From contig DASVZC010000093.1 in NCBI GenBank assembly GCA_036391835.1, forward strand, positions 8,802-72,801: a stretch of DNA of 64,000 nt. Reading direction: 5' to 3'. This DNA comes from Ktedonobacterales bacterium (GTDB lineage Bacteria > Chloroflexota > Ktedonobacteria > Ktedonobacterales > JADMIN01). Each line of letters begins with the position of its first letter. Position 1 is the stretch's first letter. Positions 53,952 to 56,560 of this stretch are shown here, one piece after another. The translations under genes and the position numbers were made by a program. Below the pieces are notes generated by a model. It saw only the letters and a list, made by a program, of their open reading frames with translations. It had not been told where the DNA came from and searched no databases.

Positions 53952-54989
53952 ATGAGTGACGATATTCGACGCGAAATAGGGCTGATGAGCCTGGCGACGT
54001 ATTTGCCGGAGCGTGTACAGACAGCGGCCGAGATAGCCGCTGAGAGCGAGATTCCCGAAGAGGTTGTGCGCGAGAAGCTGGGTATCACGTCTAAGCGGTT
54101 GGCAAGCCGAGAAGATCAGACTTCGGCGATGGCGGTGCATGCGGCGCGCACAGCGCTCGATCGCGCTGGCGTAACGCCCGACGAGATCGATCTGATTCTC
54201 TACTCTGGGAGCATGCACAAAGACTTCTATGTGTGGTCAGCAGCCAATCGCATCCAGTATCTTCTGGGCGCGCGGCGCGCCTGGGCATTTGAAGCGGTGG
54301 CGCTTTGCACCACAAACGTGCTTGCGCTGAAGCTGGCCCGCGATCTGATGACGTCCGATAGGCGGCTGCGCACCGTGCTGATTTGTGGCGGCCATCGCAC
54401 TGGCGACCTCATCAACCTGCGTGACCACACCACTCGCTTTCTGTTCAATCTCTCCGACGGCGGCAGCGCAATGGTTCTGCGGCGCGGACATCCGAGCAAC
54501 CAGATACTCGCGTCGTCATTCATCACTGACGGCTCGCTCTCCGAGGATGTTACGATTCCAGCGGGTGGGACACGTGCGCCGACCTCTCCAGAGACGCTGC
54601 GCGAGGGTCGCCACACATTCCATGTGTCCGATTCCGCTCACCTCAAAGCTGGACTCACCGAGGTTTCTGAGCGAAACTTCGTGCAGGTGGTTCGCGAATC
54701 AGTCGAATATAGCGGGCGTCGTCCGCAAGATATCGCTTTCCTCGCGATCAATCATATGAAGCCGTCCATGCATCGGCGGATTCTCGCCGAGCTGGGACTG
54801 CGCGAGGACCAGTCGATGTATCTATCCGACTATGGACACATTGGCGCGCCCGATCAGGTATTGGCGCTCGAACTGGCGCAGGCGCAGGGTAAACTGCGCG
54901 ATGGCGACCTCGTCGTTGCGGCAAGCGCTGGTCTCGGATTTACCTGGGGAGCGACGGCGCTCCTGTGGGGAAGGGACACGCGACCATGA
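53952..54989 (+). CDS. KAS III (FabH)-like thiolase-fold enzyme with non-canonical active-site residues
   Basis: The Cys is in FEAVALCTTNV. INHMKP stands at the PHQAN position and YGHIGAPD at the GNTSAAS position. The C-terminus is GLGFTWGA. AAGGAGG precedes the ATG at 53952. Confidence 0.7.
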   Translation: MSDDIRREIGLMSLATYLPERVQTAAEIAAESEIPEEVVREKLGITSKRLASREDQTSAMAVHAARTALDRAGVTPDEIDLILYSGSMHKDFYVWSAANRIQYLLGARRAWAFEAVALCTTNVLALKLARDLMTSDRRLRTVLICGGHRTGDLINLRDHTTRFLFNLSDGGSAMVLRRGHPSNQILASSFITDGSLSEDVTIPAGGTRAPTSPETLREGRHTFHVSDSAHLKAGLTEVSERNFVQVVRESVEYSGRRPQDIAFLAINHMKPSMHRRILAELGLREDQSMYLSDYGHIGAPDQVLALELAQAQGKLRDGDLVVAASAGLGFTWGATALLWGRDTRP

Positions 54990-56560
54990 CAACAGGCGGA
55001 CGTTTCGTTGGCGTAGGCGAATGGCTAGCGCGACGTGAACAGCTTTCGCCAGACCACATCGGGCTGATCGACGTCGCTACAGGCGAGCGTCTCACCTATC
55101 GAACGCTGAATACGCGCGCCTGTGCGCTTGCCGCGTGGCTCAGCGAGCGCCACGGAGTTCGAATGGGCGACCGCGTGGCGATCCTTGCCGCCAACAGCCC
55201 AGAGTACCTGGATGCGTTCTTTGCCTGCGCTCTACTGGGAGCCATCCTGACGCCGCTGAACTGGCGGCTGACACGGCCTGAACTCATCGGTATCCTGAGA
55301 GATTGCGAGCCAGTAGCGCTGATCGCTGACGACGCCTATATCAGTGTCGCGACGGACGTGGCGACGGAAGCTGGGACACCGCGCCTACTGCGAATCGATA
55401 ATTTCCCTGGCGCCGACGCGGTGTTGGCCGCGCGGGCAGAGCCTTTCGAAACGCAGGACGGCGAAGAGATTGCCCTGATTCTCTATACGTCTGGCACGAC
55501 GGGGACACCCAAAGGCGCCATGCTCTCCCATCGGATGTTGACCTGGAATGCCATCAATACGCAAATTTCCTGGGGACTGCGCGAGGAGGACATCGCTCCA
55601 ACGTTCGCGCCATTCTTTCATGCCGGCGGCCTCAATGTGCTCACGACACCGATGTATCACCTCGGGGGGACCGTCGTGTTGCTGCGCGATACGCGCCCTG
55701 AAGCAATCCTCGCCGCTGTCGAGCGTGAGCGCTGCACACTCCTTTTCGCTGTGCCTACCGTGTTTCAGATGATGATGGAATCGTCCACATTTATGTCGAC
55801 TAATTTGTCGTCCGTGCGATTCTGCATCAGCGGCGGCGCTCCATGTCCACTGCCGATCATCGAAGGCTATTCGACGCGAGGGTTGGAGTTTCGCCAGGGG
55901 TATGGACTGACCGAAGTTGGTGTCAACTGCTTCGGTCTCGCGCCTGAGGATGCGACCCGCAAGGGTGGCTCGGTTGGGCGACCTGTCTTTCACTCGCGGG
56001 CGCGCATCGTGGATGACCACGACGACGATGTAGCTCTGGGAGCCGTCGGCGAACTCGCGCTTGCGGGGCCACATGTGTGTTCGGGTTACTGGCGTCGCCC
56101 GACCGCTACCGCTGAGGCGTATCGAAACGGCTGGTGGCACACGGGCGACCTCGTGCGCCAGGACGAGGAAGGCTACTATTTCATCGTCGGGCGTAAGAAG
56201 GACATGTACATCTCCGGCGGCGAGAACGTGTACCCGGCCGAGATTGAGGGTGTGCTGGCGACGCATGAGGGTATCGCTGACGTTGCGGTGCTGGGCCAGC
56301 CAGACCCGCGCTGGGGCGAGGTTGGACTGGCCATAGTCGCGCCACGCTTGCCAGATGCGCTGACTGAGCAGGACATCTTGAGCTACTGCGACGGTAGGCT
56401 GGCCCGCTTCAAGATCCCCAAGTCCGTTATCTTCGTTGATGCCCTGCCACGCAACGCGATGGGCAAAGTGGTCAAAGCGGAACTGTATGAGCGTTACGTT
56501 TCGACCGCTCACGACGCGCAGATGAGCGCGGCGACTGGGGAAGCAGACAAGGCGCGTTGA
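54986..56560 (+). CDS. AMP-dependent acyl/aryl-CoA ligase (ANL superfamily)
   Basis: Carries YTSGTTGTPKG, GYGLTE, WHTGDL and GRKKDMYISGGENVYPAEIE. It shares an ATGA overlap with the KAS III-like gene. Confidence 0.85.
   Translation: MTTGGRFVGVGEWLARREQLSPDHIGLIDVATGERLTYRTLNTRACALAAWLSERHGVRMGDRVAILAANSPEYLDAFFACALLGAILTPLNWRLTRPELIGILRDCEPVALIADDAYISVATDVATEAGTPRLLRIDNFPGADAVLAARAEPFETQDGEEIALILYTSGTTGTPKGAMLSHRMLTWNAINTQISWGLREEDIAPTFAPFFHAGGLNVLTTPMYHLGGTVVLLRDTRPEAILAAVERERCTLLFAVPTVFQMMMESSTFMSTNLSSVRFCISGGAPCPLPIIEGYSTRGLEFRQGYGLTEVGVNCFGLAPEDATRKGGSVGRPVFHSRARIVDDHDDDVALGAVGELALAGPHVCSGYWRRPTATAEAYRNGWWHTGDLVRQDEEGYYFIVGRKKDMYISGGENVYPAEIEGVLATHEGIADVAVLGQPDPRWGEVGLAIVAPRLPDALTEQDILSYCDGRLARFKIPKSVIFVDALPRNAMGKVVKAELYERYVSTAHDAQMSAATGEADKAR

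Follow-up and report, generated by a model that had tools for sequence, protein, structure and literature searches.

Several enzymes with the fold of 3-oxoacyl-acyl carrier protein (ACP) synthase III (KAS III) carry a catalytic triad other than the Cys-His-Asn set of FabH. In ChlB3 the triad is Cys113-His296-Asp301, and CerJ mutants altered at the equivalent residues lose activity (PMC9573744). DpsC has a triad termed 'AT-like', S118-H297-D302, for which self-acylation and transfer to ACP have been demonstrated, and DpsC-type enzymes move short acyl groups from coenzyme A (CoA) to ACP (PMC12664062); the triad of OxaC is S113-H292-D297 (PMC12308425). In CerJ and Pau29 the first His is missing, and both have acyltransferase activity; DpsC and CosE have been described as Cys(Ser)-His-His enzymes, a set linked to decarboxylative condensation (PMC4425429). 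DpsC keeps a His, His266, at the first-His position (PMC9573744). Here we compare with these enzymes a KAS III-like protein encoded at positions 53952 to 54989 of a 64,000-nucleotide stretch of DNA from a soil bacterium, a member of the Ktedonobacterales in the Chloroflexota (GenBank assembly GCA_036391835.1, contig DASVZC010000093.1, positions 8,802 to 72,801 of the forward strand). The whole of this stretch is called the window, and all coordinates are given in it.

Active-site residues of the window protein

The gene and the codons discussed below are as follows.

53952..54989, plus strand: KAS III-fold protein of the PRK06840 family, 345 aa (from its translation, its match to NF005308 and an AlphaFold2 (AF2) model)
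54306-54308: codon of Cys119
54750-54755: codons of Asn267 and His268
54759-54761: codon of Lys270
54837-54839: codon of His296
54852-54854: codon of Asp301

In translation, the open reading frame (ORF) begins with the ATG at 53952 and ends with the stop at 54987-54989. A first-pass annotation of the window had described the product as a non-canonical KAS III-like enzyme with an apparent Cys-His-His triad, in which the nucleophilic Cys is kept, one His stands at the position of FabH His244 and a second His replaces the catalytic Asn. We aligned the protein to FabHs of solved structure and to that of E. coli (NC_000913) by HMMER pairwise, HMMER profile and MAFFT alignment. Cys119 aligned with FabH Cys112, and His296 with FabH Asn274, in all three alignment types, so that the retained nucleophile and the replacement of the Asn were both borne out and a canonical Cys-His-Asn triad was not seen.

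We then examined 102 full-length representatives of clusters at 50% identity, 76 of which have His at the Asn274 column while 26 are Asn-type. An Asp five residues after this His (Asp301 in the window protein), a residue absent from the first-pass annotation, is kept in all 76 His-carrying representatives, and the nucleophile is Cys in 67 of them and Ser in 6. The Asn-type proteins have Ser, Thr or Ala at the Asp301 column, save for one Asp-bearing fragment. Judged from these alignments, the His at the FabH Asn274 position, with an Asp five residues on, is real and non-random.

The first His of the proposed triad fared differently. In ungapped alignments anchored on the LGL helix that follows, FabH His244 corresponds to Asn267 and FabH Gln245 to His268, so that the His assigned to the His244 position is one register off; of the Cys-His-His set, the Cys and the last His stand, and the first His lies one residue out of register. 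From the same anchor, FabH Asn247 corresponds to Lys270, Arg249 to Ser272, and Lys256 and Lys257 to Ala279 and Glu280. Other changes from FabH are Asn274 to His296, Ser279 to Asp301, Gly209 to Asp227 and Pro88 to Trp95.

The Asn267 column is variable across the clade (N/L/T/I). His268 is invariant in the window protein's subclade (36/36), which argues that it is constrained there, and the sister subclade has Gln or Asn in its place; membership of His268 in the triad is not shown by these alignments. His268, Lys270 and Ser272 form an i, i+2, i+4 face that we take to line the pantetheine/ACP entrance of FabH, and R249, K256 and K257 of FabH are presumably the basic residues that dock ACP. In the window protein these three docking positions are Ser272, Ala279 and Glu280, and column 272 holds Ser in 41 of the 76 His-Asp proteins as against Arg in 15 of the 26 Asn-type proteins. 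The conserved catalytic set is Cys119 with the His296-Asp301 pair, an acyltransferase-type triad as in DpsC, CerJ and ChlB3.

Comparison with KAS III-fold acyltransferases

A PDB search with the motif segment (residues 256-312) returned a single match, ChlB3. In the pairwise alignment His296 and Asp301 of ChlB3 align with His296 and Asp301 of the window protein, and Asn265 and Phe266 of ChlB3 with Asn267 and His268; the profile alignment to ChlB3 shifts the Asn267/His268 pair by one residue relative to the pairwise one. The window protein has in common with CerJ, ChlB3 and Pau29 the KAS III fold, a Cys nucleophile, a His at the Asn274 position and an Asp at +5, and in all of them the first FabH His is replaced, by Asn in the window protein, ChlB3 and Pau29 and by Val in CerJ. 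As aligned here, its register resembles the CerJ/ChlB3/Pau29 state with the addition of a neighbouring His.

There are also clear differences. The window protein scores only 46-54 bits to CerJ, PqsC or ChlB3 compared with 108 to a FabH, and it has an extra conserved face, His268-x-Lys270-x-Ser272. CerJ, ChlB3 and Pau29 are O-/S-acyltransferases of actinomycete secondary metabolism, whereas the window family is found in a catabolic module for poly-3-hydroxybutyrate (PHB) and 3-hydroxybutyrate (3HB) in several phyla, as described below. Neither the window operon nor any of the related loci examined was found to contain genes for an ACP, a polyketide synthase (PKS) or a glycosyltransferase.

The KAS III enzymes DpsC, CosE and OxaC, which act in priming, share with the window family the His-x4-Asp pair (H297 and D302 in DpsC), and some PRK06840 members share their Ser nucleophile; short acyl-CoA donors are plausible for the window enzyme as well. 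DpsC differs in having His266 at the column where the window protein has Asn267, the His of the window protein coming one residue later, and in being served, within a type II PKS cluster, by an ACP dedicated to it. Replacement of the Asn by His is therefore an already known catalytic variant, and the novelty lies in the lineage that carries it and in its context.

Family and fold

The window protein contains both Pfam domains of KAS III and scores 444.7 bits against NF005308 (PRK06840, '3-oxoacyl-ACP synthase'; cut-off 315), in agreement with the first-pass description of a KAS III-like enzyme; the orthologue from Lysinibacillus scores 525.8 bits to the same model. The FabH model TIGR00747 gives 142.5 bits, compared with a cut-off of 292.1. 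Among the thiolase domains of Pfam only Thiolase_C_1 gave a match, at 20.1 bits, below its gathering score of 28.

A single-sequence AF2 model with a predicted local distance difference test (pLDDT) score of 41.6 was discarded, and an alignment-based AF2 model with pLDDT 96.6 was used. This model superposes on FabH, BioZ and PqsC with Z of 39-41 and a root-mean-square deviation of about 2 Å over 310-328 aligned residues. FabH, BioZ, ZhuH, PqsC and PqsD are tied as its structural matches (Foldseek and VIA-align, Z 39-41); DpsC, CerJ and ChlB3, which are long-branch proteins, fall outside the top 50 in a list where scores are tied. FabH is the best match overall in sequence and structure, with the same Cys position and the same dimeric thiolase fold, and the pairwise scores of the window protein are 108 bits to FabH, 60 to DpsC, 52 to CerJ and 48 to ChlB3.

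The window protein is matched by 133 clusters (50% identity) at E up to 1e-30, and all 81 aligned His-variant proteins match NF005308/PRK06840. In a tree that left out the one Asp-bearing Asn-type fragment, the His-Asp proteins group together as a single clade (SH-like support 0.87), inside which two tips lack the His. By these family models and this tree, the window protein is a KAS III-fold enzyme of a monophyletic PRK06840 clade, separate from ordinary FabH.

Longer relatives of the KAS-like protein, with fused domains, were searched for, and none was found. P0215, a metagenomic representative of 485 aa, was seen by eye to combine a canonical Cys-His-Asn FabH domain with an N-terminal lipoyl-attachment-like domain (ETNKA) and an E3-binding-like segment, an E2-type architecture in which the KAS III domain takes the place of the E2 catalytic domain. 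Since P0215 is Asn-type, it says nothing on the His-Asp clade.

Gene neighbourhood in the window

The KAS-like gene lies in a plus-strand operon that is divergent from a transporter operon. The other features of this region are listed here.

54986..56560, plus strand: ANL-family acyl-CoA ligase, 524 aa (AMP-binding, 302 bits, and AMP-binding_C)
52700..53938, plus strand: intracellular alpha/beta hydrolase with a GWSLGG nucleophile elbow (NF050089, 102 bits)
51296..52567, plus strand: Peripla_BP_6 substrate-binding protein, first gene of the plus-strand operon (Pfam)
46291..51063, minus strand: genes for LivH, LivM, LivG and a LivF-hydrolase fusion, the ATP-binding cassette (ABC) importer of the module, divergent
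45403..46173, minus strand: 3HB dehydrogenase, a short-chain dehydrogenase/reductase (SDR), last enzyme gene of the divergent transporter operon
44445..45332, minus strand: TetR-family regulator, probably of the module

The ATG of the ligase at 54986 overlaps the TGA stop of the KAS-like gene as ccATGAca, with a shared ATGA, which confirms the translational coupling to an ANL CoA ligase noted in the first-pass annotation. At 53936-53943, 8 nt 5' of the KAS-like start, a Shine-Dalgarno sequence, AAGGAGG, shares nucleotides with the TAA that ends the hydrolase gene before it, so the hydrolase, KAS-like and ligase genes are all closely coupled. A weak consensus scan found no promoter- or terminator-like sites between these three genes. 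The true start of the hydrolase is likely the ATG at 52829. Its nucleophile elbow follows the GWSxGG pattern of the Lysinibacillus depolymerase described below, and its homologues adjoin the KAS-like gene in most relatives; on this basis we consider it a putative distant relative of the Bacillus-type intracellular PHB depolymerase.

The best curated family for the ligase is PRK06839, with a score under the cut-off of that family, and the solved structures nearest to it are fatty-acyl and feruloyl-CoA synthetases, FadD5 and FadD13. Directly downstream, on the opposite strand, is an operon of aryl-CoA (anthraniloyl-CoA) type encoding a PaaK-type ligase, an acyl-CoA dehydrogenase, a crotonase, an SDR and a flavin monooxygenase-reductase. 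The KAS-like operon has no ACP gene. An ORF of 72 aa at 56664-56882 on the minus strand, past the PaaK-type ligase gene, lacks the ACP serine motif by eye and was ruled out as the operon's ACP for that reason.

The module is conserved across phyla

A scan of one genome per species gave 80 loci from at least six phyla. These come from the Chloroflexota (Ktedonobacteria, Anaerolineae, Herpetosiphon and Chloroflexia), where about 10% of the sampled genomes carry a member of the PRK06840 clade, from Bacillales (Lysinibacillus, Virgibacillus, Ornithinibacillus and others), Bdellovibrionota and Thermotogota, and as single loci from Polyangiaceae, Cytophagia, Spirochaetota and Acidobacteria. An ANL ligase is present on the same strand within 5 kb at 44 of the 49 loci having at least 5 kb on both sides. 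Where the KAS-like and ligase genes are directly adjacent (18 pairs), they overlap as in the window in 8 and are separated by gaps of a few nt in the rest. The fixed stoichiometry that had been read into the overlap cannot be derived from an ATGA, and gene order and spacing vary among the relatives.

The other recurrent genes encode alpha/beta hydrolases (69 of the 80 loci), Peripla_BP_6 binding proteins (37), FabG-like SDRs (35), a second ligase (25) and MaoC hydratases (24); a thiolase gene is present at 4. Liv-type ABC components, SSF symporters and TetR and Lrp regulators recur among the related loci, and the Liv-type components adjoin the KAS-like gene in Bacillales, Thermotogota and Chloroflexota.

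The closest relative outside the Ktedonobacteria (P0124, 48% identity) is encoded by a metagenomic locus, L084:271-12956, and has Ser in place of the nucleophilic Cys. This locus is a 12-gene module with two hydrolases, two ligases, a 3HB dehydrogenase, MaoC, a binding protein and ABC genes, and its order is reversed, the ligase coming first and its stop overlapping the start of the KAS-like gene.

Association with PHB breakdown

The SDR encoded at 45403-46173 scores 335.6 bits against TIGR01963 (cut-off 307) and 326 against NF009093 (cut-off 258), both models for 3-hydroxybutyrate dehydrogenase, and this assignment ties both divergent operons of the window to 3HB/PHB products. Its orthologues, at 63-67% identity, flank the KAS-ligase pair at three related loci (L006, L008 and L009), and 3-hydroxybutyrate dehydrogenases scoring above cut-off are also present at L014 and L084. 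In Lysinibacillus an intracellular short-chain polyhydroxyalkanoate (PHA) depolymerase gene comes directly after the KAS-like gene (NF050089, 447.7 bits against a cut-off of 300) and is followed by genes for a FabG-type SDR and a ligase. The module-linked NF050089 depolymerase is the only one in three Bacillales genomes. The operon of Bacteriovoracaceae has genes for type 1 and type 2 extracellular PHA depolymerases next to it (NF050058, 226-265 bits against 150; NF050059, 344 against 280), and its order is hydrolase, KAS-like, SDR, hydrolase, ligase, symporter. The SDRs of the Bacillales, Thermotogota and Bdellovibrionota modules score as FabG-type 3-oxoacyl-ACP reductases. Through these curated models, the cross-phylum module of importer, hydrolases, CoA ligase, SDR and sometimes MaoC is tied to PHB breakdown products.

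A sample of Bacilli contained 24 NF050089-positive loci (L088-L111), which fall into two groups. Depolymerases of the first group share 50% identity or more with the Lysinibacillus enzyme and have KAS-like and SDR genes alongside. Those of the second are 43-49% identical to it and stand alone.

Canonical PHB catabolism (PhaZ, BdhA, acetoacetyl-CoA synthetase and thiolase) shares with the module the depolymerase-type hydrolases, a BdhA or PhaB/FabG-like SDR and a CoA ligase. The ligase of the module differs in being a FadD/MenE-like ANL enzyme, not one of the acetyl-CoA-synthetase type, and the KAS III-fold protein, which is constant in the module, has no textbook counterpart.

Candidate reactions of the KAS-like enzyme

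We tentatively favour, while expecting to be wrong rather more readily than right, acyl transfer through Cys119 between 3HB esters and CoA. By a ping-pong mechanism with an acyl-enzyme intermediate, and independently of ACP, the enzyme would act on the CoA thioesters of C4 units that derive from PHB, and would bring about CoA-dependent cleavage of imported 3HB oligomer esters. The His296-Asp301 pair would activate Cys119, which would take a 3-hydroxybutyryl unit from the ester and hand it to CoA, giving 3-hydroxybutyryl-CoA with no ATP spent. Freed 3HB would pass by way of the dehydrogenase and the coupled ligase to acetoacetyl-CoA, and ordinary thiolases would finish the pathway.

It is the combination of the acyltransferase-type triad, the Ser variants, the lost ACP-docking residues and the lack of an ACP gene that favours ping-pong acyl transfer. 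Cleavage of oligomers would also account for the intracellular esterases and the importer beside the KAS-like gene, for the presence of a free-acid branch (3HB dehydrogenase and ligase) alongside a CoA-ester branch (MaoC or FabG-like SDR), and for the commonness of two ligases. A transfer reaction like those of the KAS III-like acyltransferases of secondary metabolism had been suggested in the first-pass annotation, and it matches the published Cys/Ser-His-Asp class (PMC9573744, PMC12664062, PMC4425429).

Several points weigh against this proposal. In overall sequence and fold the window protein is closer to FabH than to DpsC, CerJ or ChlB3, and the triad that PRK06840 has in common with these enzymes could be convergent. 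Were the side chain of His268 directed towards the pocket, the active site would look like the Cys(Ser)-His-His condensation set (PMC4425429). The step from ester to thioester is energetically uphill, and the one or two hydrolases of the module could be sufficient to cleave every ester. The window hydrolase matches NF050089 over its N-terminal half only (102 bits), and one Bacilli locus, L089, has a permease, a depolymerase, an SDR and a ligase without a KAS-like gene. Finally, we found no paper on PRK06840-family proteins in the literature.

The main rival, which we consider unlikely, is that the protein is a KAS III-fold thiolase carrying out retro-Claisen (thiolytic) cleavage of acetoacetyl-CoA, or of another 3-oxoacyl-CoA made by the ligase and dehydrogenase, and so completes the canonical route from 3-hydroxybutyrate to acetyl-CoA. 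The depolymerase/hydrolase, dehydrogenase and ligase map one-to-one on the known pathway, thiolysis is the sole step left, and the only conserved enzyme left over is a thiolase-superfamily protein in loci that rarely contain a thiolase gene (4 of 80). His296 and either His268 or the Gln/Asn that replaces it could serve to stabilise an enolate, and the Ser variants need not exclude C-C cleavage, as Ser-His-Asp C-C hydrolases exist. Against this, the position equivalent to FabH His244 is not conserved in the clade, and in the published class loss of that His accompanies loss of C-C chemistry (PMC4425429).

The Thermotogota loci also bear on the thiolase question. In both Thermotogota genomes searched (L081 and L033) the sole thiolase gene is inside the module, beside the KAS-like gene; the module there still needs a thiolase, which argues against the KAS-like protein being one. 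The locus from a Thermotogota metagenome-assembled genome (MAG), L081:5132-13840, encodes a hydrolase, the KAS-like protein, a FabG-like SDR, TetR, a butyryl-CoA:acetate-type CoA-transferase, a thiolase, a binding protein and ABC components. The CoA-transferase occupies the usual place of the ligase, and this replacement suggests that the ligase supplies a CoA thioester and not an adenylate handed to the KAS-like enzyme. After the KAS-like gene in L033:7956-16513, a locus of a MAG that bears the label Thermotoga sp., come genes for two ligases, an SCP-x-type thiolase, a DUF35 protein (ChsH2-type oligonucleotide/oligosaccharide-binding (OB) fold/zinc-ribbon) and a pair of alpha/beta hydrolases. 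Together, the thiolase and the DUF35 protein are reminiscent of the archaeal thiolase/3-hydroxy-3-methylglutaryl-CoA-synthase/DUF35 complex.

Rather improbable, in our view, is a DpsC/CosE-like priming role, in which acetoacetyl or 3-hydroxybutyryl units would be moved from CoA to the housekeeping ACP, or an acyl-CoA would be condensed with malonyl-CoA or malonyl-ACP, so that PHB-derived C4 units would enter fatty-acid synthesis directly. Such a role would fit the short-acyl transfer from CoA to ACP by DpsC-type enzymes (PMC12664062), the FabG-type scores of the SDRs in the Bacillales, Thermotogota and Bdellovibrionota modules, and the MaoC dehydratases that are common neighbours. However, the module lacks both an ACP gene and an enoyl reductase, and the importers, the TetR and Lrp regulators, the depolymerases and the 3HB dehydrogenase all point to catabolism. 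The positions of Arg249, Lys256 and Lys257, which we take to dock ACP in FabH, are likewise Ser, Ala and Glu in the window protein.

Still less probable is an ester-forming acyltransferase that would make 3HB esters or oligomers from 3-hydroxybutyryl-CoA supplied by the ligase, as an analogue of PHA synthase built on the KAS III fold. PHA synthases also have a Cys-His-Asp triad, CerJ-type enzymes build oxo-esters from acyl-CoA, and the reaction from thioester to ester is downhill. The N-terminal domain of class I/II PhaC was not found in 5 of the 6 module-bearing genomes, by a model (PhaC_N) that covers class III/IV synthases poorly and with the window's own genome being 63% complete. The module nevertheless looks catabolic, with extracellular depolymerases, an importer and a 3HB dehydrogenase, and no evidence points to PHB storage in these organisms.

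The first-pass annotation had compared the coupled genes with PqsA and PqsD. In that scheme anthranilate or some other aromatic acid, once activated by the ligase, would be condensed by the KAS-like enzyme, or this enzyme would cleave an aroylacetyl-CoA, in either case feeding the neighbouring operon. We regard this as very improbable. The pairing of a CoA ligase with a KAS III-fold enzyme is indeed the same, the opposite strand carries an aryl-CoA-type operon directly downstream, a feruloyl-CoA synthetase is among the best solved relatives of the ligase, and PqsD and PqsC are structural neighbours of the KAS-like protein. Their structural matches are, however, tied with those of all FabHs, and PqsD is a user of malonyl-CoA with a canonical Cys-His-Asn triad. 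Nor is the adjacency conserved: in the close relatives L004 and L005 a MaoC gene, not the aryl-CoA operon, follows the ligase, and a gene context of anthranilate activation or quinolone synthesis was found at none of the 80 related loci. The window module thus has no conserved link to anthranilate genes, and its conserved partners elsewhere are PHB-depolymerase-type hydrolases, 3HB dehydrogenase or FabG-like SDRs, MaoC and importers. The anthraniloyl-CoA operon is a neighbour in this lineage only, which leaves both the 'aryl' reading of the cluster and the PqsA/PqsD analogy unsupported.

An ordinary housekeeping FabH, as the public annotation '3-oxoacyl-ACP synthase' and the KAS III fold would have it, was rejected as next to impossible on the sub-threshold TIGR00747 score, the changes of Asn274 to His and His244 to Asn, the separate canonical Cys-His-Asn FabH on contig C64 of the same genome and the lack of fab genes around the locus.

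Implications

The protein belongs to a new lineage of a known catalytic variant; the lineage spans phyla, is apparently uncharacterised and is mis-named in databases. It is possible, and we would put it no higher than that, that PRK06840 is a previously unrecognised enzyme of polyester metabolism on the KAS III fold, either a 'thiolytic' transacylase of 3HB oligomers or an oligo-/poly-3HB synthase on a scaffold other than PhaC. If so, the finding would correct a widespread mis-annotation as '3-oxoacyl-ACP synthase', add an enzyme for the turnover of PHB and bioplastics, with a possible use in enzymatic recycling by conversion of PHB oligomers to CoA thioesters, and offer a simple soluble system in which to study the switch of the thiolase fold between C-C and acyl-transfer chemistry.

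The transacylase version would conserve the energy of the ester bond as 3HB-CoA, and if either version is true, the textbook PHB cycle misses a conserved step of Chloroflexota, Bacillales, Bdellovibrionota and Thermotogota. To our knowledge, the His-Asp KAS III active site is otherwise confined to a few actinomycete antibiotic pathways; here the same solution defines a large clade in primary catabolism, within a cross-phylum module for PHB breakdown products.

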